From positions 1-42,828 of IMG/VR virus record IMGVR_UViG_2778261419_000003: DNA of 42,828 bases. One strand, written 5' to 3'. Numbering within the stretch: position 1 is the stretch's first letter; each line of letters begins with the position of its first letter. Of this stretch, positions 3,339 to 14,116 are shown piece by piece. The position numbers and the translations under genes are program-made. Source of the stretch: a virus (taxonomy: Duplodnaviria; Heunggongvirae; Uroviricota; Caudoviricetes). Under the pieces are notes generated by a model that did not search any database, had not been told where the DNA came from, and saw only the letters and a program-made list of their open reading frames with translations.

Positions 3339-6248
3339 TTATGCCTGAGTACGCAGCGCTTCAAGGCGGCGCAGGTCGAAGTCGTTCAGTTCGTCGGTGT
3401 AATCAGCGGTGATCGGCGCTGGCCATTCGCCAGTGTCAAAGCCGGTAGCGATAGCGCGCATCGCCTTGCGGTACTCGAGCATGCCCAGCTCTAGCAGTTC
3501 AGCGGATGCCTCGATGATGGCGATCCAGTGGTAGTTCTCGTCTTTGTTGACGAAAATCCAGAAGAACTGGTCAAGTGCCGCGGTCTCGCAATACATGGCG
3601 GCGCTCAGGTGATAGTCACGGTCGATGATTTCCCGGTGCAGTTTGGCGCGCAGACCTTCCTGCTTAATGTTCCACATGCTGATGGTTTTAAGGTCGGCAC
3701 CGATGCGTACCCCGTCCAAGTCGATCTCAAGGTCAGGACGCACGCGGACTTCAAGTCCGGTTTCGTCGTCAAAGCCAAAATAGCTCACCTCAACAGCGCG
3801 GCTCGGGTGCTGGAGTAGCATCCCGGCGGTTGGGTGCTGGAGCAGGGCTTTCTGAATGGCCAGTGCGGTGCACAGTTGCTGGCGGGTGACCAGAACTTTT
3901 CCTTGCGGATTCTCACGCCAGGCATCCAGCAATTCGTCGGCGAAGACGGCGTCCGGATTAACAGACTTCACGGCCTGTATCAGGTCTGATTTGGTACCGG
4001 ACACTTTCAGCGGTTGCGGCTTCTGCGCTTCCTGGGCCACCAGGTCAGGATTGATGATTGCCAGCTGCTCGAGTAACGCATCACGGCTACCGCTGGTTTT
4101 CACCTGTGCTGGCAGAGTGGCGTTGTATTCCTTGATGCAGGCTTTCATCGCCGCTGCGGTCTGCTTCTGGTCCGCTTCGATACGCTGATACTCTTCAGGA
4201 AGCGACATATAGCTCTGACCAGTTTCCTCGACTGAACCACCCAGCGGCACCTGTGCTGGCAGAGTGGCGTTGTATTCTTCGAGCAAGGCTTTGATCTCAT
4301 CTGCACTCAGCAGCGCTTGCAGACCTGCGTTGTAATCATCGATAAACGCGCGGATCGTTGCCGTCGTGGTGAATGCGCCTTCCGGAATTACCGGTTCAAC
4401 GCTGAATTCCTCATCGAGCTGCTCTGGCTGCAACGCCAGTGCATGAACCAGGTTACCCATGTCCAGCACCGGAGAACGCTCTTTGGTGATCGTTTTGGCA
4501 ACGTGGCGCGCGTTGAAGTACATCAGGCTAACGCGGGCATCTTTTACCTGCGTGCTGCTGATCCCGTTCGCTGCGTGATAAACCTCGTTCGGCAGACCTT
4601 CATAGCGACCTGGCTCGAAGTAAGCGGGGTAAACAACAGCTGGTTCGTCAGATTGGGCATCTGGCTCGGTTTGTGCCAAAACTGGTTCAGTCTGGTTTAC
4701 AGAATCGCTATTTTGGGCGACAGAATCCGTATTCTGGTTTACATCGGCTTGCTGGCTGGTATCTGATTCTTCACCAGTTTCCATACTGCTTTTGCCTGAC
4801 TGCACTTCAGTACCAGCCTGTTTTTCATCACTGACAGTTTCTTGAACCTGCACATTGCTGGTGGTCTCCGTAGCCTTTTTCGTGCCATGAGTAGCTGAGT
4901 TCTGCAGCAAAGCCGTAACGTCGAATATTCCGTTGCCGACATTTTTAACCAGTTCTTGTTCGACTTTCTGCGGTTGTGCCGCAGCTTCCTCTGCGCGGCG
5001 GCGTGCTCCTTCTTCACGCACGCGTTGCAGGTTCTCTTCGTGAGTGCAGAAGGATTTGCGCGGAGACTCCTTACTTTCAGGTTGGTGAATTTCCTGAGTT
5101 GCTACTTCAGCTTCATGCAACGGCAATAACTCAACCGCAGAGTTGAATTCAGCAGTCATGGTCTGGTTAACAAATTCCAGGTGAGCGACAGGGGTTAGAT
5201 GAATATTTTCCGGCGCGATACGTACCAGGTTAAAAATAGCCGTGCGGTTAACGCCAAGAGCGCCAGGCTGATTGCGCAGAATGCTGCTCCATGATTTCCA
5301 CGGTTCTTCTTTTTTGGTCACGATTTCTTTGGCGCGACGAAGAATGCTGCCTGGGATCTCGAAGTGGTTGAAGTCCATAGGCAGAAGGGCACAGGCAATC
5401 TCTAAATCGAGAGTGTCCAGGGTGTGGTGTGCGTCAGGTCCACGGTCAGTGACGTAACCGCCGTTGGCATTGGTTCCGGAATCAGTACGCTGAACACTAC
5501 TGATGTGATTACCGGCAGCCCATTCACGCGCCAGGATGCCACGGTCAATGTAATCAGTAGCCGCCCACATTCTGGTGAAACGGAGTACCAGCGCGAGTTC
5601 GTGACGCTTGTCCTGGCTGAACACTTTGCGAATGGCATCGGTGTAGCGCCACAGGTCTTTGGTGTCGTAACCCTTCACTTCCGGGCAGTTCTCAGCAGCT
5701 AACAGCAAGTTCTGGACGTAACTGTTATCAGTGTCCATCTCCAGCGCGCCGATAGCTTCGTACTCTTCGCGGGTTACGTGGTGGCGCAGTTCGTCGGCGG
5801 TGAACTGGGAAAGCAGTTGCTTACGAAACGGCATCTGCACTACCGGGTAGAGGGTTGAGTCGTCGTCGTGTTCGTCCAGCGTGATGCCAGCGGTTTCTGG
5901 CAGCGTTGACTCAGTAGTTATGTGACTATCAACGGTCTGAGCCGTTTTCTCGTCAGAGTTTTCAGCTGTGACTTTTGGCAGCCAGGTGCGGTCATCGTTC
6001 TGCAGTTCGTAGCGTTCGCACCAGGTGTAATCCACTGCGCCTTCTTCCGGCAGGTCGTCATATACCGGGAAATCGGTGCGGATTGGTTTGGCATAATCTT
6101 TACCGCGGCCAGTTTCTTCAATTCCGGCTTCTTCCAGTGCCACATCGAGTTGGAGATTGGCGCGCGCTACACTTTTCGCAGTGAACCAAATCACTGCATC
6201 TTTCTTGCCAGACTTCTGACTGGCTTTTATCAGATGGAAAAATTCCAT
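3339..6248 (-). CDS. recE: Exonuclease VIII (RecE-like)
   Basis: N-terminal region matches the E. coli RecE N-terminus as recalled (DLPEEGAVDYTWCERYELQNDDRTW); large acidic/Q-rich linker; conserved C-terminal nuclease domain; start ATG 6246-6248 with AAGAGGA SD chosen over the extended ORF start at 6353. Confidence 0.8.
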   Translation of the reverse strand: MEFFHLIKASQKSGKKDAVIWFTAKSVARANLQLDVALEEAGIEETGRGKDYAKPIRTDFPVYDDLPEEGAVDYTWCERYELQNDDRTWLPKVTAENSDEKTAQTVDSHITTESTLPETAGITLDEHDDDSTLYPVVQMPFRKQLLSQFTADELRHHVTREEYEAIGALEMDTDNSYVQNLLLAAENCPEVKGYDTKDLWRYTDAIRKVFSQDKRHELALVLRFTRMWAATDYIDRGILAREWAAGNHISSVQRTDSGTNANGGYVTDRGPDAHHTLDTLDLEIACALLPMDFNHFEIPGSILRRAKEIVTKKEEPWKSWSSILRNQPGALGVNRTAIFNLVRIAPENIHLTPVAHLEFVNQTMTAEFNSAVELLPLHEAEVATQEIHQPESKESPRKSFCTHEENLQRVREEGARRRAEEAAAQPQKVEQELVKNVGNGIFDVTALLQNSATHGTKKATETTSNVQVQETVSDEKQAGTEVQSGKSSMETGEESDTSQQADVNQNTDSVAQNSDSVNQTEPVLAQTEPDAQSDEPAVVYPAYFEPGRYEGLPNEVYHAANGISSTQVKDARVSLMYFNARHVAKTITKERSPVLDMGNLVHALALQPEQLDEEFSVEPVIPEGAFTTTATIRAFIDDYNAGLQALLSADEIKALLEEYNATLPAQVPLGGSVEETGQSYMSLPEEYQRIEADQKQTAAAMKACIKEYNATLPAQVKTSGSRDALLEQLAIINPDLVAQEAQKPQPLKVSGTKSDLIQAVKSVNPDAVFADELLDAWRENPQGKVLVTRQQLCTALAIQKALLQHPTAGMLLQHPSRAVEVSYFGFDDETGLEVRVRPDLEIDLDGVRIGADLKTISMWNIKQEGLRAKLHREIIDRDYHLSAAMYCETAALDQFFWIFVNKDENYHWIAIIEASAELLELGMLEYRKAMRAIATGFDTGEWPAPITADYTDELNDFDLRRLEALRTQA

Positions 6249-6386
6249 GTGAGATCCTCTTTTTTGAGTGTTAGAATCCCCGGGCCAGAGATAGCGCCCA
6301 TTGGATGTTTTTTGGTTTGGTATAAATTCCGGTGTAACTTTGGTCGGTGGCACCGGACGTGAATCCCGCCTTGCGCGGGTTTTACG

Positions 6387-6548
6387 TTAGCCTTCGTGAG
6401 CCATCTGGTCGTGCGAAGCGCAACGTTTGGAGCAATACTCTTTTTCTTTGCGCGCCAGCTGTGAGCCGTTGCGATAGAGAAGGGTGCTCTTGATTACTTC
6501 CTCCGTTTTAACCGGCTTGCCGCAATATCCGCATTTCTTGTCTAACAT
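6387..6548 (-). CDS. Small zinc-ribbon protein (53 aa; possibly YdaE-like)
   Basis: Not in the ORF track (<60 aa). ATG 6546-6548 preceded by GGAGGA SD; translation MLDKKCGYCGKPV...EYCSKRCASHDQMAHEG has CxxC...CxxxC zinc-ribbon spacing; sits upstream of recE as ydaE does in Rac. Confidence 0.4.
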   Translation of the reverse strand: MLDKKCGYCGKPVKTEEVIKSTLLYRNGSQLARKEKEYCSKRCASHDQMAHEG

Positions 6549-6559
6549 GACATCCTCCG

Positions 6560-6766
6560 CTAGTGGCTGAGTCCATGCCCCAGACCGTTCAGATAAACTT
6601 CAACCAGCAAATCCTTGGTGTAAGTCATTTCTACGCCGCGATGCAGATACAAACGTCCGCGAGCGTTAGCTGATGCCGTCCAGGTTGAGTCTTTGTGTTT
6701 GACGAGCATCCCCGGCTGAACTGCGCCGCGGTTTACTGTCTGTGTACCGTAGTGCTGATGAACCAT
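6560..6766 (-). CDS. Hypothetical small protein (occupies the kil-like position)
   Basis: 68 aa from ATG 6764-6766 with GGAG SD; the longer 116 aa ORF would need a TTG start; function unknown. Confidence 0.35.
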   Translation of the reverse strand: MVHQHYGTQTVNRGAVQPGMLVKHKDSTWTASANARGRLYLHRGVEMTYTKDLLVEVYLNGLGHGLSH

Positions 6767-7018
6767 GATGTTCTCCAGTTTTTCTGAGTGAACTTCGCTG
6801 GTGGTGCCGCGGCGCTGATCTTCACGGTTGAGCGTTTTAACTCTGCAATTCACCACCGCGAAGCTCACTCTGTGCTTTGCCCTTGTCGCCAGGCTGGCGG
6901 AACGTTTCAAACCTACTGCGCGTTAATCTCACCACCTCATTCCGGTCTTCGTATGCCCCGGACGGCTACTTCGTGGGCTCCATGCCTGGGTGGTTCGTGG
7001 TGCGTCTTGGTGAGTTAG

Positions 7019-7082
7019 ATTAAATCACTGGTTTATATATATGTCAACTTAAGGTTGGTGTTAATTGTAAATCTGAGGTTTA
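7019..7082 (-). promoter_or_regulatory. Leftward early promoter (PL-like) with two operator sites (OL)
   Basis: Minus-strand -35 TTGACA (7042-7047), 17-nt spacer, -10 TTTAAT (7019-7024); 15-bp pseudo-palindromic operators TAAATcactgGTTTA (7021-7035) and TAAATctgagGTTTA (7068-7082) match the OR sites. Confidence 0.5.
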
Positions 7083-7121
7083 TGTGGCTGGGTTTTGTGA
7101 CACGTCTGCAGAATCGCAGGC

Positions 7122-7148
7122 AAAAAAAATCCCGACGCGTGGTCGGGA
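7122..7148 (-). terminator. Rho-independent terminator ending the repressor-linked operon
   Basis: Plus-strand A8 run then TCCCGAC-GCGTG-GTCGGGA; on the minus strand a 7-bp GC-rich stem followed by U8. Confidence 0.6.
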
Positions 7149-7221
7149 TGAGAAGGTTCGGGGAAGGCGACAGAGTTAGTAGCTGAGAGCCTTATAACTC
7201 AGGCGTATTGACCAAATCTGA

Positions 7222-7743
7222 CTAAAAGAAGTGCATAAAAGCTTTGTACAGCCCTGTACCAATGGCGATAATCGCAGGGACACCTAAGAGAATCGCCAAT
7301 TTAGCATCAGAGATTTTCTTGTCCACTGTGTCTGATGAGGGCTTTTTGTCTACAGACTCTTTGATACTAGACAGCCTCTCCAAAACTACAGCCATATTTT
7401 TGTCCAGTGAATTCACTGTCGTATCAACTTTTGAAACTGTGTTTTTTATCTCGGCAACATCTTTCTTGATGTGGGCAACTTCAACCTCAAGAATAGCCAA
7501 TCTCTTTTCCATGTCGTCACCTCCATCTTCAGTTGACGTATGAATGATTTCAGTATCATCCATAGCAACTGATGTGACAATCCGTTTTTGTTTATCCGAA
7601 GCGGCAAAACTACAAGCACCCATAAGGAAGGTTGCTTGGCTCGAAGCTACTGATGAAAACTCTAAGCCTACTGTAGCTCCGCTATGGTCTGAATATGCAA
7701 TCAATAACTTCCCTTCACCAAGAGATGATTGAGCCGCATCCAT
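7222..7743 (-). CDS. Coiled-coil protein with single C-terminal transmembrane helix (immunity-region accessory gene B)
   Basis: ATG at 7741-7743, 7 nt after the upstream stop, with GAGGAA SD; about 173 aa; central heptad-like coiled coil; C-terminal hydrophobic segment AILLGVPAIIAIGTGLY; AT-rich by eye. Confidence 0.5.
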   Translation of the reverse strand: MDAAQSSLGEGKLLIAYSDHSGATVGLEFSSVASSQATFLMGACSFAASDKQKRIVTSVAMDDTEIIHTSTEDGGDDMEKRLAILEVEVAHIKKDVAEIKNTVSKVDTTVNSLDKNMAVVLERLSSIKESVDKKPSSDTVDKKISDAKLAILLGVPAIIAIGTGLYKAFMHFF

Positions 7744-7749
7744 CAATTA

Positions 7750-8031
7750 TTATTCCTCAAACATACTTTTTAAGGATTGATAAAAATCATAAGCCTTTTG
7801 TTTGCTTAAAGTCACAGACACAACTTTGGTTCGCTGCATGCCCTTGACGACTATATCCGCATTATCCGTACCGATGATCGGGCTGCTATTCAGGAACACA
7901 AAATTGTAAACTTCGTAACCGGCATTTTGTGTGCCGATTGTTACGACACCGTCAGCATTGGTCTCGATGAAATTTTTCGCTTCGATTACATCATTAAGAT
8001 GCATAAGTTCGACGGTTGTTTCTTTAGACAC
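7750..8031 (-). CDS. Hypothetical soluble protein (immunity-region accessory gene A)
   Basis: 93 aa; GTG start 8029-8031 preceded by GGAGGA SD at 5-nt spacing; tightly coupled to downstream gene B; AT-rich by eye. Confidence 0.45.
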   Translation of the reverse strand: MSKETTVELMHLNDVIEAKNFIETNADGVVTIGTQNAGYEVYNFVFLNSSPIIGTDNADIVVKGMQRTKVVSVTLSKQKAYDFYQSLKSMFEE

Positions 8032-8095
8032 CGAATCCTCCAGAAGATATTAAATCTTGAAATATTTTTATTACATGGAATTAGATACTACTGGT

Positions 8096-8485
8096 TTAGG
8101 TTTGCTCACCTTGCGATCGAATCCGACCCTTCATGTACTTCTCGTACAGCTCATCTAACTCTTTCAGGCGAAGCGCAAAAATGCGGAGCATGTTCTGCTG
8201 CTCTTCTTCCGGTAACTGGCGGTAGAGCTCGAGCAAACGCTGTTCGTCCGGTTTGAGACCGTCTTTCTCCCCAACGTCTTCACCGAGTAGCCAGGCGACA
8301 GAAATACCAACAGCGTCGGCTATGGCCAGTGCCGATTTCTTACTAATCACGCCTTTTTTGAACCAGCCGTTTACGGCCTGAGGGGTGACTCCAGCTATTC
8401 TTGCCATGTCTGCTTTGGTAACGCCGCGATCAGTGATCTCAGTAAGGCGCTCCACCAGAACGAGGTTGGGTTCTTCTTTTCTCAT
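8096..8485 (-). CDS. CI-like prophage repressor (HTH, XRE family)
   Basis: ATG 8483-8485; about 129 aa; N-terminal HTH (TKADMARIAGVTPQAVNGWFKKG); divergent from the cro-like gene across an operator-containing intergenic region. Confidence 0.8.
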   Translation of the reverse strand: MRKEEPNLVLVERLTEITDRGVTKADMARIAGVTPQAVNGWFKKGVISKKSALAIADAVGISVAWLLGEDVGEKDGLKPDEQRLLELYRQLPEEEQQNMLRIFALRLKELDELYEKYMKGRIRSQGEQT

Positions 8486-8587
8486 ATGGTCATTGTAAAT
8501 ATTTGGTTTATGCACGCAATAAATCCAAAGTTTGCATGAAGTATAAATCTGTGGTTTACTTCTGCTATCAATAAGCAGGAGAAGCAC
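8486..8587. promoter_or_regulatory. Divergent PRM/PR-like region with three operator sites (OR)
   Basis: 15-bp sites TAAATatttgGTTTA (8496-8510), TAAATccaaaGTTTG (8520-8534), TAAATctgtgGTTTA (8544-8558), spaced exactly 24 bp; candidate PR -35 TTGCAT (8532-8537) / -10 TTTACT (8555-8560); candidate PRM -10 TACAAT on minus strand (8492-8497) abutting the repressor ATG. Confidence 0.55.
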
Positions 8588-8806
8588 ATGTCCGCACTCG
8601 ATAAAGCAATTAAAGCCGCTGGCTCTGCCAGAAAGCTCAGCATCGCGCTTGGTGTGACGAGTATGTCTGTAAGTCATTGGAAGAATCGTGACCAAGGGAT
8701 CGTCCCGCCAAGCTATATCTTCCCGATTTTCAAAATGACAGGCGTAACCCCCCACGAGCTGCGCCCTGATCTCTATCCAAATCCCACTGACGGATTACCA
8801 AAGTAG
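8588..8806 (+). CDS. Cro-like HTH regulator (YdaS-like)
   Basis: 72 aa; AGGAG SD; HTH segment ARKLSIALGVTSMSVSHWK; divergent from repressor. Confidence 0.75.
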   Translation: MSALDKAIKAAGSARKLSIALGVTSMSVSHWKNRDQGIVPPSYIFPIFKMTGVTPHELRPDLYPNPTDGLPK

Positions 8807-8817
8807 GAGCACTGACA

Positions 8818-9375
8818 ATGCAAACACTTTCTTTTCAACAGAATAACAGAGCGCCATCAGAGCACCTGAAATTCCAGTATCAACACAGTGAGGCTGAAGG
8901 CCAGCCGGTCGATCACCGGGCTATCTGTTCTGCCGTCCGCGCCTGGGCGGCGGCAGAGGGCCGCGTGGCGGTCGCTCTGGCGATTAAAGAGGCTGCCGAA
9001 CAGGCCGAGCTTGACAGCATTGACATGACCGGCAGCGCCGATGTGTGGAACGTGAAGCTGTTTCGCTGGCTGGACAACCACGAGAAATCACCGGCCTACC
9101 GGGCGAACGTCGAGCAGCTGGCGCCGGTAATAATTTCGGTTCTGCCGCTGGCGTACCGGGATCGCGTGATTAAGCACGACTGCTTTGCGGTTCGTGTCGC
9201 CAGGTCGGTGAAAGAAGACGCTGAGGCGATACAGGCTGTCGTCCTCAAAGCCCCCAGACACGAACGGATGAAGGAAATCAGCGAGAGCATCGTAGCCAAG
9301 CTCTACCTGGACGGACCTGATTCTGTGGCGCCCATTATGGCGATGGTTACAACGATGCTGGGTGGTGCGCTATGA
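8818..9375 (+). CDS. YdaT-like protein (CII-position regulator)
   Basis: 185 aa immediately after the cro-like gene with AGGAG SD; position and size as for ydaT of Rac-like prophages; sequence family not verified. Confidence 0.4.
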   Translation: MQTLSFQQNNRAPSEHLKFQYQHSEAEGQPVDHRAICSAVRAWAAAEGRVAVALAIKEAAEQAELDSIDMTGSADVWNVKLFRWLDNHEKSPAYRANVEQLAPVIISVLPLAYRDRVIKHDCFAVRVARSVKEDAEAIQAVVLKAPRHERMKEISESIVAKLYLDGPDSVAPIMAMVTTMLGGAL

Positions 9376-9459
9376 CGGGCTCAGAAATGGCGAAAGCCGC
9401 GGTGCTCGAACACCAACGGCTTTCAGGTGCAAAAACTGTGCGTAATTGCGGAGAACAGT

Positions 9460-10371
9460 ATGTCAAATACCGCTGAAATATTCAAATTCCCCACACAGCA
9501 GGGGAAACAGGAGAGCAGCATGGCTGAACTGGAGAAAGGCTATTTGCGCCTGGCCAACCAGATTCAGGATGCCCTGTGTATCGTCGAACTATCCGGGCGC
9601 GAGTTCCGGGTGCTGAATGCTATCGTTCGTCTGACCTATGGCTGGTCTAAGAGTTCTGACCGCATCGCCAATAGCCTCATTGCAGATAAAACGACGCTGA
9701 AGGTGAAACACGTCTCTGAAGCCGTGTTGAGCCTTGCCTATCGGAACATCATCATCCTGCGCCGCATTGGGCAAACCAGATACATAGGGATTAATACCAG
9801 CCTGGATAAATGGGCGTATACCAAGCCAAATTGCATGAAGTGTCCAGCGGTGTTTCCTGCTGCTGAAGTTGTCACATGGGTTATTACCATCCCTGAATTC
9901 AGGGATAGCAATTTTACCCCTTCAATCATCCCTGAAAACGGGGATAACCATCCCCAAAAACAGGGAGAGGTATCCCTGAAAACAGGGAACACCAAAGACA
10001 TTCTTCCAAATACAAATATAAATACAGATCTAACCCCCTCTAATCCCCCAAAGGGGAAGGGTAAGTTTGACCCGCTGACGATTCCCGTTCCTGAGTGGCT
10101 TGATTCTGTGTCCTGGAGTGAGTGGGTGGCCTACCGCCAACAGTCTGGCAAAGCCATCAAGACCGAAATGACGGTCACCAAAGCATTCAAGTTGCTCAAG
10201 GCTTGCCTGGACGCTGGGCATGACCCCGTTGATGTGATCAACACCAGTATCGCCAACGGGTACCAGGGACTGTTTAAACCGAAGTTCGCTCTCAACGCTC
10301 GCAAAACGGGCAGGGATGTGAACCGCATTTCTGAGCCAGACAAAACAATCCCACCCGGATTCAGGGGGTAA
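9460..10371 (+). CDS. O: Replication initiator protein O-like
   Basis: N-terminal domain matches lambda O (FRVLNAIVRLTYGWSK vs lambda FKVLLAILRKTYGWNK); ATG 9460 with GGAGAA SD preferred over the GTG at 9427; ori iterons lie inside the gene. Confidence 0.8.
   Translation: MSNTAEIFKFPTQQGKQESSMAELEKGYLRLANQIQDALCIVELSGREFRVLNAIVRLTYGWSKSSDRIANSLIADKTTLKVKHVSEAVLSLAYRNIIILRRIGQTRYIGINTSLDKWAYTKPNCMKCPAVFPAAEVVTWVITIPEFRDSNFTPSIIPENGDNHPQKQGEVSLKTGNTKDILPNTNINTDLTPSNPPKGKGKFDPLTIPVPEWLDSVSWSEWVAYRQQSGKAIKTEMTVTKAFKLLKACLDAGHDPVDVINTSIANGYQGLFKPKFALNARKTGRDVNRISEPDKTIPPGFRG
9889..10030. repeat. Lambda-type replication origin: four 18-bp iterons plus AT-rich tract inside the O gene
   Basis: ATCCCTGAATTCAGGGAT (9889-9906), ATCCCTGAAAACGGGGAT (9928-9945), ATCCCCAAAAACAGGGAG (9950-9967), ATCCCTGAAAACAGGGAA (9972-9989), then AT-rich CAAATACAAATATAAATACAG; resembles lambda ori iterons. 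Confidence 0.7.
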
Positions 10372-12551: not shown

Positions 12552-12756
12552 CTAACCTTTCATAAAGGCTGTTTAAGCAGGCTAATTTTCATATCTTAGT
12601 AAAGTTTCTGCTGGTTAATAATTAGCAGATACAAAACAGAATCCCGCGATTTCACGGCGGAGCCAGCTATGTTTGCTGAAGCACTGGTGCGTGCAAATTT
12701 GCCAGAGCTTTGTCAGCAGAAACAAATAGCGGCTTAATAAAACATTGCTAATTCAA

Positions 12757-12782
12757 CCCGCTACGGCGGGTTTTCTTTTTTT
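12757..12782 (+). terminator. Rho-independent terminator
   Basis: CCCGC-TACG-GCGGG hairpin followed by TTTTCTTTTTTT. Confidence 0.5.
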
Positions 12783-12844
12783 ACTACTGACAGAAAATTA
12801 ACAATTTGTGCTCTTAAAACGTTGATCATTTCCGTGCATAGGTA

Positions 12845-12864
12845 TACTGTATAAAAACACAGTA
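12845..12864. promoter_or_regulatory. LexA (SOS) box upstream of dinI
   Basis: TACTGTATAAAAACACAGTA fits the CTGT-N8-ACAG consensus; 18 nt upstream of the dinI start. Confidence 0.65.
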
Positions 12865-12882
12865 CATGCAATGGAGGCCATT

Positions 12883-13116
12883 ATGAAAGTTGAATTAACC
12901 ATTGATCGCATGAAAGAACTTCCTAAAGGCGCGGTACCAGCACTGGAGAAAGAATTGCTTAAGCGCCTGAATGATCACTATGACAATTGCAGGCTCACAA
13001 TCCGCCGTGCCGGGTCCGATGGGTTAAGTGTTTTCGGTGGAGACAAGGACGATAAAAAGAAAATCGAATCCATCCTCCAGGAAACCTGGGAAAGCGCTGA
13101 CGACTGGTTTTATTAG
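12883..13116 (+). CDS. dinI: DinI-family DNA damage-inducible protein
   Basis: C-terminus ...KKKIESILQETWESADDWFY matches E. coli DinI (ISEILQETWESADDWF); ATG 12883 with GGAGG SD. Confidence 0.85.
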   Translation: MKVELTIDRMKELPKGAVPALEKELLKRLNDHYDNCRLTIRRAGSDGLSVFGGDKDDKKKIESILQETWESADDWFY

Positions 13117-13233
13117 AATTGCGCTTAAGGCTGGCGCGCATTTATCAGAATACCGCAATTTGCGTAACCCTCTGATGCTGCTGCCGACAATCTTTAATCG
13201 CGTCTGTTAGTCGCTCGAAGGGAGAACATAAAT

Positions 13234-13482
13234 GTGAGTGATTCAGCTTTGCAAACGTCAGATGACAACTGGTATGACATTGTAAGAAGGTCTGACGGCT
13301 GCGTGGTGTTTAGCTTTCCTTCATCGGGCAGGCATCTAATTTATCGCGTCAATGGCATGGTTTCTATGCGGCCTTTGCTGGATGATGAAGAGGTCTTTAC
13401 TCCTAATGGTTTTATGCAGTTTATTCACCGTCTCGGCTACCGGGTAACCCCACCTTCTGATAATATGAAATCAACGGTCTGA
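13234..13482 (+). CDS. Hypothetical protein
   Basis: 82 aa ORF with GTG start and GGGAG SD; no recognised motif. Confidence 0.3.
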   Translation: MSDSALQTSDDNWYDIVRRSDGCVVFSFPSSGRHLIYRVNGMVSMRPLLDDEEVFTPNGFMQFIHRLGYRVTPPSDNMKSTV

Positions 13483-13516
13483 ACAACCGTAACCTACTGC
13501 GCCACGGAGAGAAACC

Positions 13517-14116
13517 ATGGCGCACGAACTACAACTCATCAAGCAGTCATCAGGAATCCTGATCCCCGCGACGCCGGAGACCAGCGATATTCTGCAATCA
13601 AAAATCAAACTCGGCGCCGTGCTGGTAGCCGAATTTCGCCAGGTGAGGAATCCCGCATTCCATCGCCGTTTTTTTGCGCTCCTGAATCTCGGGTTTGAAT
13701 ACTGGGAACCTACTGGAGGGGCGATATCCAGCAATGAGCGTAAGCTCGTAAATGGTTATGCTAAATTCCTCGCGGCATTTGGTGGAAACGAAGGCGCACT
13801 GCTGGATGCTGCCGAGCAATATCTGGACCGCATCGCCGATAAGCGCGCCGGTAGCATCAGCATCTGCAAATCCTATGATGCTTATCGCGCCTGGGTGATC
13901 GTCGAGTCTGGTCACTATGACGCTATTCAGCTTCCTGACGGAACACTTCGCAAACATCCCCGCAGTATTGCCTTCGCTAACATGGACGAAACCGAGTTCC
14001 AGCAGCTGTACAAAGCCGCGCTCGATGTTCTGTGGCGATGGATACTCTCCCGATCATTTCGCAGTTGTGAAGAGGCAGAAAACGCCGCCGCCCAGCTGAT
14101 GAGCTTTGCGGGGTGA
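13517..14116 (+). CDS. Hypothetical nin-region protein
   Basis: 199 aa ORF with AGGAG-like SD; resembles conserved lambdoid nin-region proteins; family not verified. Confidence 0.45.
   Translation: MAHELQLIKQSSGILIPATPETSDILQSKIKLGAVLVAEFRQVRNPAFHRRFFALLNLGFEYWEPTGGAISSNERKLVNGYAKFLAAFGGNEGALLDAAEQYLDRIADKRAGSISICKSYDAYRAWVIVESGHYDAIQLPDGTLRKHPRSIAFANMDETEFQQLYKAALDVLWRWILSRSFRSCEEAENAAAQLMSFAG

Follow-up and report, generated by a model that had tools for sequence, protein, structure and literature searches.

Which protein sets the immunity of the prophage represented by a 42,828-nt stretch of Caudoviricetes DNA (IMG/VR record IMGVR_UViG_2778261419_000003, positions 1 to 42,828; hereafter the window, meaning this whole stretch), through which DNA sites does it act, and where does the messenger RNA of its repressor begin? 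These questions are raised by a region in which a minus-strand gene for a helix-turn-helix (HTH) repressor and a divergent cro-like gene are accompanied by a short sequence repeated five times. Our analysis makes it very likely that this region is the immunity switch of a Gifsy-like lambdoid prophage of Escherichia coli, and its immunity type appears to be that of a Salmonella repressor most probably identical to GfhR (Gifsy-3; Gifsy-1 of SL1344). The gene content fits a lambdoid immunity region, with the minus-strand repressor, the divergent gene of YdaS/Cro type, then a YdaT/CII-like gene and then the replication gene O. The layout fits as well: repressor and cro diverge across a gap of 102 bp that holds three spaced sites overlapping the predicted repressor promoter (PRM) and the predicted rightward promoter (PR). 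Both this kind of system and all of its mechanisms are already known, and the element is an ordinary, well-built member of that kind of phage switch.

Five repeats and the DNA-binding domain of the repressor

An earlier note, made from the letters of the window, had described five copies of a 15-bp motif, TAAAT-N5-GTTTA, three of them right operators (OR) exactly 24 bp apart between the divergent repressor and cro-like genes, and two of them left operators (OL). A motif search of the window bears this out. Four copies are exact, against 0.06 expected, a count that was reached in 0 of 100 shuffles, and the fifth, OR2, carries one mismatch (Table 1). All five lie on the plus strand in the same orientation, inside two intergenic stretches with a GC content of 0.34-0.36 compared with 0.52 for the whole window, and their start-to-start spacing is 24 and 24 bp in OR and 47 bp in OL. 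An unbiased repeat search found the same four-copy family (spacings of 47, 1428 and 48), and a position weight matrix (PWM) built from relatives only picked the same five sites, with scores of 22-28 bits; in the 42.8-kb window the unrelated position that ranks next reaches 9.9 bits. Judged from the flanks, the motif is better given as TAAATC-N3-GGTTTA, with 6-bp half-sites TAAAyC.

Of 5426 complete E. coli genomes, 13 contain the 2-kb region at 99.6-100% identity, with 100% in E. coli SZQ1 and ECCWS199. In three relatives at 81-95% identity, phage PHB10 (L001) and the E. coli prophages L002 and L003, the genes that separate the repressor from OL are different ones; despite this different cargo, OL1, OR1 and OR3 have unchanged relative positions in all of them. 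The motif search in related prophages that had been suggested as a check thus finds the sites in place, and does so at a Salmonella locus (L032) too. OL1 is identical in PHB10, L002, L003 and L032; OR1 is identical in L002, L003, L005-L010 and L032 and differs by one central base in PHB10; and OR3 is conserved in relatives. OL2 is kept at an offset of 46-47 bp in most relatives of group A (the groups are defined below), while in L001 and L006 the strict pattern is matched by OL1 only, OL2 of PHB10 having one mismatch. As for OR2, the weaker site, only L003 among L001, L002 and L003 has it within one mismatch of the search pattern, and its half-sites TAAA and TTTG are kept in groups A and E. 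A possible third OL site, at about 7044-7058 (TCAACTTAAGGTTGG), has the right spacing and overlaps the -35 of the predicted leftward promoter (PL); it was left unscored by the matrix and is poorly conserved, and we do not claim it.

A scan of one genome per species yielded 25 usable further loci at 62-99% identity, from Enterobacter, Citrobacter, Leclercia, Kluyvera, Klebsiella and other genera. The alignment of their repressors is a mosaic, in which the C-terminal half (GEDVGEKDGLKPDEQRLLELYRQLPEEEQQNMLRIF) is near-identical in four groups and the N-terminal HTH domain comes in distinct types. Taken together with the E. coli, phage and Salmonella relatives, the repressors sort into five groups by their DNA-binding domain. 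Group A (TPQAVNGW; the window, L001-L003, L005-L010 and L032) has the operator TAAACC-N3-(G/T)ATTTA, read in the direction of the repressor. Group E (L023-L027) combines the HTH domain of group A with a diverged C-terminal domain; its operator, TAAA(C/G)...TTTA, is as in A, and its three sites have the same 24-bp spacing. Group B (TPQSVNGW; N-terminal arm and helix 2 differ; L011 and L012) has TAAGC-N5-(G/A)CTTA, group C (SKQAVTGW; L013-L015 and L029) has TAAAGC-N4-RTTTA, and group D (S(S/A)QSVNNW; L016-L022) has TAAAC-N5-GTTTA.

Downstream of the repressor gene, at a distance of 470-2800 bp that depends on the cargo, each of the groups A, B, D and E has its own motif again. It usually occurs there as a pair 46-48 bp apart, the distal copy of which is usually followed by aat-type bases that complete TTTAAT; for group C, a search with the exact pattern gave no OL pair. 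A different HTH domain of the repressor goes with different OR sites, with parallel changes at OL in four of the five groups. Because the site sequences co-vary with this domain, we read the five sites as operators that set the immunity specificity, as the earlier note had supposed; this co-variation is the strongest available evidence for such a role short of experiment.

Table 1. Positions in the window of the operators, predicted promoters and genes of the switch and of its SOS module
Feature	Position	Strand	Description
OL1 operator	7021..7035	+	TAAATCACTGGTTTA; exact motif; PWM 24.7 bits; in PL spacer, overlapping PL -10
OL2 operator	7068..7082	+	TAAATCTGAGGTTTA; exact motif; PWM 25.1 bits; 47 bp from OL1, 20 bp upstream of PL -35
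OR3 operator	8496..8510	+	TAAATATTTGGTTTA; exact motif; PWM 24.9 bits; over PRM spacer and -10, centre -18 from predicted PRM start
OR2 operator (weaker site)	8520..8534	+	TAAATCCAAAGTTTG; one mismatch; PWM 22.4 bits; abuts PRM -35, overlaps PR -35, centre -42 from predicted PRM start
OR1 operator	8544..8558	+	TAAATCTGTGGTTTA; exact motif; PWM 28.0 bits; in PR spacer, overlapping PR -10
Predicted PL, extended -10	7019..7047	minus	TTGACA (7047..7042), 17 bp, TG (7027..7026), one base, TTTAAT (7024..7019)
Predicted PR	8532..8560	+	TTGCAT (8532-8537), 17 bp, TG (8552-8553), one base, TTTACT (8555-8560)
Predicted PRM	8492..8519	minus	TTGCGT (8519..8514), 16 bp, TACAAT (8497..8492), 6 nt (GACCAT), ATG at 8485
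Intrinsic terminator ending repressor-cargo operon	7129..7149	minus	8-pair stem, then T run; just upstream of OL and PL
HTH repressor, 129 aa	8485..8096	minus	sequence reading, open reading frame (ORF) list
Repressor/cro intergenic region	8486-8587		102 bp between start codons; sequence reading
OL-side intergenic stretch	about 7000-7100		AT-rich
Cro analogue, 72 aa, YdaS family	8588..8806	+	Pfam YdaS_toxin (PF15943) 1.4e-13, above curated cut-off
CII analogue, 185 aa, YdaT family	8818..9375	+	Pfam YdaT_toxin (PF06254) 1.5e-17, above curated cut-off
Replication O gene	9427-10371	+	Pfam search
Cargo ORF, 93 aa	8031..7750	minus	AT-rich, GC 0.40; Shine-Dalgarno GGAGG before GTG at 8031
Cargo ORF, 174 aa	7746..7222	minus	AT-rich, GC 0.42
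Kil-like gene	6910..6560	minus	PHROG search
LexA box	12847..12862	+	CTGTATAAAAACACAG; only perfect CTGT-N8-ACAG in window; overlaps promoter of dinI-antirepressor operon
dinI homologue	12871..13116	+	Pfam DinI 1.9e-26; first gene of SOS-controlled operon
GfoA/GfhA-type antirepressor, 82 aa	13234..13482	+	GTG start; predicted inducer of the switch
DUF1367 protein, irsA position	13517..14116	+	Pfam DUF1367 3.4e-92; last gene of unit; order as in PMC3121763

Predicted promoters and the start of the repressor gene

The predicted promoters PL and PR follow one layout, in which a -35 hexamer, 6 nt and the 15-bp operator lead into an extended -10, TGnTTTAnT, that uses the last four bases of the operator. 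The blocks TGTCAA and CAGTGATTTAAT of PL, like TTTGCAT and GGTTTACTT of PR, are invariant in four relatives. The earlier note had placed the two OL sites on either side of a leftward TTGACA/TTTAAT promoter. The two exact sites and the promoter, with its hexamers 17 bp apart, are indeed present and conserved in relatives, and their arrangement has to be corrected: OL1 lies inside the PL spacer and OL2 upstream of the -35. For PR, a different -10, TATAAA (8543-8548), was considered and dropped for TTGCAT-17-TGgTTTACT, since PHB10 has TGTAAA at this place and no -35 stands at a usable distance.

On the repressor side, the hexamer TACAAT said to abut the ATG is present and lies exactly 6 nt upstream of it, a distance that puts the predicted PRM +1 on the A of the ATG at 8485. 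This distance is conserved. Among the 24 related loci in which a start codon of the repressor could be identified, 22 have TACAAT, TAGAAT or TAAAAT at exactly -12 to -7 from the repressor ATG, and counting L012, with TATTCT at the same place, 23 of 24 have a hexamer 6 nt before the ATG; TACAAT at -12 to -7 is found in the window, in L001-L003 and at the Salmonella locus as well. The linker takes 20 different sequences in the 24 loci, so it is the distance that is conserved and not the sequence. The cro gene has a Shine-Dalgarno sequence, AGGAG (8577-8581), at the usual distance, and none was read before the repressor ATG.

There are precedents in related switches. The paaR2 mRNA of CP-933P is leaderless by 5' RACE (rapid cDNA-end amplification), N-terminal sequencing and mass spectrometry (PMC8630535), and its PRM, GATAAT-TACCAC-ATG, has the same geometry as that of the window; the strongest racR promoter of Rac gives a leaderless transcript (PMC9638921); and in Gifsy-3 the short form of GfhR is made from a promoter between two in-frame AUGs (PMC3121763). 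The Salmonella protein P0088, which begins MYKSNIYNGPMRKEEP, likewise has two AUGs 10 codons apart with TACAAT between them. Very probably, then, the repressor mRNA starts at its own start codon as a leaderless PRM-type transcript, in agreement with the earlier note.

Several points weigh against these assignments. A consensus promoter scan accepts only a -10 with A as its second base and hexamers that each match in 4 or more of 6 positions. It called none of PL, PR and PRM, which are therefore predictions; PL was missed because of the demand for an A. The -10s of PL and PR, TTTAAT and TTTACT, both lack that usual A, and the PRM -35, TTGCGT, has 3 of 6 consensus positions. In L011 (group B) the hexamer lies one base further off, with a 7-nt linker, and a leader seems to be present in L028. 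Translation from the in-frame GTG at 8515 could yield a protein of 139 aa, as annotated for P0001, and a longer form of the Gifsy-3 repressor, GfhR*, appears only on induction (PMC3121763). More generally, every functional statement made here about the element, including the transcription start and operator binding, is drawn from comparison.

The two points on a longer protein lead to an alternative, which we consider improbable: that the mRNA has a leader, that the repressor starts at the GTG at 8515 and that TACAAT is only the flank of an operator. In the window and its close relatives no stop codon interrupts the frame over the 10 codons before the ATG, forms of 137-139 aa are annotated in several databases, GfhR* is made from the upstream AUG in Gifsy-3 after induction (PMC3121763), and TACAAT also flanks OL2, where no gene follows. 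In eight relatives with TAGAAT or TAAAAT, however, the hexamer places a stop codon in the upstream frame; its first three bases (TAG or TAA) are an in-frame stop in L010, L016-L022 and L025, which rules out the longer protein in these loci. The 10 extra codons, which coincide with OR3, are conserved at the DNA level, and neither the GTG at 8515 nor the ATG at 8485 is preceded by a Shine-Dalgarno sequence. In the published purification of GfoR, the ATG predicted here was taken as the start (primer le144). Finally, the OL2-equivalent site of group D has no such hexamer, but OR3 of the same group keeps it.

A leaderless start at 8485 would fix the true beginning of a gene whose start is called variously in databases, with annotated lengths from 123 to 197 aa (proteins P0001-P0120 among them), a spread as expected when gene finders seek a ribosome-binding site that is absent. 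Over 8485-8515, many annotations start at an in-frame GTG or ATG 10 codons upstream, inside OR3, and those of 161 aa and more run into the cro side.

A stretch of 26 nt is common to OL2 and OR3, with 81% identity (7059-7084 and 8487-8512). Part of it is the TACAAT that adjoins OL2 (7069..7064, minus strand), which has neither a -35 nor a gene behind it; duplication may have left it there, or the repressor may prefer such a flank. It is not kept in group D, and we do not propose it as a promoter.

The proposed switch and its known counterparts

The scheme that we propose builds on observations, namely the sites with their geometry and conservation, the way they co-vary with the HTH domain, the homologies and a LexA module in the window. 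From these it infers binding, the order in which the sites are occupied, activation from OR2, the exact transcription start and the action of an antirepressor. The 129-aa repressor, probably as a dimer, would bind the 15-bp pseudo-palindromes TAAATC-N3-GGTTTA. Occupation of OR1, OR2 and OL1 would shut off the cro/ydaT/replication operon and the kil/recE operon; OR2 is placed such that it could stimulate PRM, and OR3 such that it could shut PRM off at a high repressor level. With PRM transcription presumed to begin at the A of the ATG, a leaderless mRNA would encode the repressor and probably also the two cargo genes that follow it. The YdaS-type Cro probably uses the same sites. Induction would need no cleavage of the repressor: DNA damage would remove LexA from the box at 12847, the dinI-antirepressor operon would then be expressed, and the 82-aa antirepressor would take the repressor off the DNA.

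It is very improbable that the five sites are recognised only by the YdaS-family Cro analogue and that the 129-aa repressor acts elsewhere or otherwise. The HTH part of Cro does co-vary with the operator type and immunity group, its tail (TGVTPHELRPDLYPNPTDGLPK) being nearly constant across genera, and in CP-933P the YdaS footprint covers the same region as PaaR2 (PMC8630535). Groups A and E, however, have a common repressor HTH domain and operator type and clearly different Cro HTH segments, a contrast that ties the motif to the repressor. A lysogenic repressor, moreover, needs sites over PR and PL, and in lambda, CP-933P and Rac both proteins use the same operators. Least tenable of all is that the repeats are chance similarity or shared promoter elements in AT-rich intergenic DNA (GC 0.34-0.36), for although five matches with one mismatch allowed were reached in 9 of 100 shuffles and a matrix score of 20.4 in 1 of 20 mononucleotide shuffles, there are four exact matches against 0.06 expected, OL2 is conserved although it lies outside any predicted promoter, and positions, spacing and sequence co-vary with the repressor HTH domain across five groups and many genera.

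For the repressor, Pfam returned HTH families only (HTH_3 at 1.5e-6 in the N-terminal part, and Phage_CI_repr at 8.6e-4); the C-terminal domain is helical, and Pfam found in the 129 aa no S24 peptidase domain such as would mark autocleavage of the lambda/P22 type. The repressor would act like lambda CI at DNA, yet is not a cleavable repressor of CI type. It is 91% identical to a Salmonella Gifsy-type repressor, P0080, and 70-76% identical to the GfoR-like proteins of group D, with a near-identical C-terminal domain. Primer le144, used for cloning gfoR, encodes KEKTHQIN (PMC3121763), and this N-terminus matches the group D loci L018-L020 at the start codon predicted here, for which reason we place GfoR in group D. 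On homology, the repressor of the window belongs to the GfoR/GfhR family. The sequence search of PDB returned only a spurious repeated polyubiquitin match for this protein.

Within this family, the group A protein P0080 is 66% identical to a GfoR-like protein of group D, and the published similarity between GfoR and GfhR is 66.4%. P0088, a 137-aa long-form annotation that differs from P0080 by one residue, stands in a Gifsy-like context, with parA downstream and with dinI, the 82-aa ORF and DUF1367. Because of the two in-frame AUGs, the downstream parA and the agreement of these two values, P0080/P0088 is very probably GfhR; what speaks against this identification is that it is indirect. At the Salmonella locus OR3, OR2 and OL2 are of the same type as in the window, and since OR1 and OL1 are identical there, the E. 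coli prophage should share immunity with the Salmonella Gifsy-type prophage, which is a prediction of the present analysis.

The SOS module (12755-14116) lies about 4 kb to the right of the immunity region, and a terminator-like hairpin precedes its LexA box. The same arrangement of the LexA box has been described for Gifsy prophages (PMC3121763), and the dinI-antirepressor-irsA unit has been described for all three of them. The window holds such a LexA-controlled operon in full, outside the immunity region; its 82-aa ORF is 91% identical to the Salmonella ORF in the same position, and the published gfoA primers match the region of this ORF with 1 and 3 mismatches. Gifsy repressors are left uncleaved on induction and are released from DNA by binding of the antirepressor (PMC3121763). 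Because the repressor of the window is predicted to lack a cleavage domain, induction via the 82-aa antirepressor is the best-supported mechanism, and the switch is in this way tied to an SOS-controlled gene elsewhere in the window.

GfoA and GfhA, as published, each inactivate both GfoR and GfhR, repressors with different operators. The C-terminal domain that is common across the groups fits this behaviour, and by analogy we infer that this shared domain would be the target of the antirepressor. Repressor and Cro are mosaic families, their recombination joints lying inside the genes (8096-8485 and 8588-8806; L005-L029), and like the Cro tail the C-terminal domain of the repressor is near-identical across genera. 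It is possible, and we suggest it tentatively, that a swap cassette with at least five specificities, residing mainly at half-site positions 4-6, unites the operators with the HTH parts of both repressor and Cro, and that one LexA-controlled antirepressor, such as the product of the ORF at 13234-13482, could induce many heteroimmune prophages across Enterobacteriaceae if the constant C-terminal domain is its target. If this is true, the five groups would be a natural series for reading the recognition code of this HTH family.

How does the element compare with switches that have been studied? Gifsy-1 and Gifsy-3 (GfoR/GfhR and GfoA/GfhA; Lemire, Figueroa-Bossi and Bossi 2011, PMC3121763) likewise have a small HTH repressor without a cleavage domain, a LexA box, dinI, an antirepressor and an irsA homologue, with the main promoter directly before the short-form AUG. 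Unlike these Salmonella prophages, the one studied here has E. coli as host, carries two ORFs of unknown function as cargo instead of parA, has a CII analogue of YdaT type where the Salmonella locus has a Phage_CII-type gene, and uses GTG instead of ATG as the upstream in-frame start.

CP-933P (Sp12) of E. coli O157:H7 (PaaR2/YdaS/YdaT; Jurenas et al. 2021, PMC8630535) also has a repressor that diverges from a YdaS-family Cro across about 100 bp and a CII analogue of the YdaT family; it has repeats at equal spacing in OR and at a PL, and a -10, 6 nt and ATG in this order. The C-terminal domains of the two repressors appear to be distantly homologous, and cargo lies behind the repressor, there as a toxin-antitoxin pair. 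Its repeat, in contrast, is an 18-bp palindrome (half-site GTTTAGTAA) in four copies, and YdaS and YdaT are only 24-27% identical. PaaR2 itself is only 19% identical over 81 residues (BLASTP, E 5e-4); a profile comparison with hhalign (probability 86%, E 5e-6) covers the C-terminal domain only, which points to a distant relative of the repressor and not an orthologue.

Rac (RacR/YdaS/YdaT; PMC9638921, PMC5700373) has the same gene order, three inverted-repeat operators in the intergenic region, a leaderless transcript from the strongest racR promoter, and an operator 3 that overlaps the racR start. It differs in its operator consensus, (T/A)TAGGC-N3-GCCTA(T/A), and in that RacR has been described with two HTH domains joined by a linker.

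The comparison with lambda CI/Cro concerns mainly the DNA. In lambda, too, PRM and PR diverge with a tripartite OR between them, and PL has operators. Its OR sites are spaced 24 and 23 bp apart, the centre of OR2 lies near -42 of PRM and the cI mRNA is leaderless; the centres of OR3 and OR2 in the window, at -18 and -42 relative to the predicted PRM start, reproduce the geometry of lambda OR. The cargo ORFs occupy the position that rexAB has in lambda. In contrast to lambda, the repressor has no S24 autocleavage domain, so that induction would go through the antirepressor; the operators are 15 bp and not 17 bp long; there are only two clear OL sites where lambda has OL1-3; and no N gene was seen. 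By all these comparisons the element would work at DNA like lambda OR/OL, belongs to the non-cleavable GfoR/GfhR family and is a cousin of the PaaR2 and RacR modules.

The understanding of such switches is unchanged by these results, which extend those on Gifsy, CP-933P and Rac. They provide explicit coordinates of operators and promoters for an immunity type that is widespread in prophages of Escherichia, Salmonella, Klebsiella, Enterobacter and Citrobacter. No published GfhR operator sequences were found in the literature searched, and the explicit sites and the series of five groups are therefore a modest addition.

Genes around the switch

Downstream of PR, the YdaS-family Cro and the YdaT-family CII analogue form a YdaS/YdaT module. 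The former matches the PDB Cro structure 3bd1 at 1.7e-5, and the YdaT-family gene matches PHROG 163, a CII-like activator, at 3.1e-40; the PDB sequence search returned nothing for the YdaT-like protein. With up to 3 mismatches allowed, TTGATT-N6-AATCAA, the YdaT site of CP-933P, has 26 matches in the window against 20 expected, which is no enrichment, and no PRE was placed.

The two cargo ORFs, whose GC content is below the 0.52 of the window, are probably co-transcribed with the repressor from PRM. They match PHROG families 12039 and 12602, both of unknown function, and the 174-aa product combines a coiled-coil region with a hydrophobic C-terminus; for neither did PADLOC return a convincing match, the only hits being weak coiled-coil-like ones to LmuB and DruC. 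In relatives the same slot holds other genes, namely HicAB, a DUF6932 gene, ParA or PaaA2-ParE2. The slot (7222-8031) resembles a hot spot for cargo genes that are expressed in the lysogen; as to function, its two ORFs are candidate defence or exclusion genes.

Between the predicted PL start and the coding part of the Kil-like gene lies a leader of about 250 nt (about 6766-7012, minus strand), of which the stretch next to PL (6960-7012) is very well conserved in relatives. It folds no better than shuffled sequence (z +1.1), Rfam returned nothing credible for 6300-9500, and no gene for an N-like antiterminator was seen downstream of PL. Further downstream of PL, a 1004-aa ORF (3339-6353, minus strand) corresponds to the RecE/exonuclease VIII genes annotated in relatives and fits a left operon of the Rac/Gifsy type, with kil, ydaE and recE.

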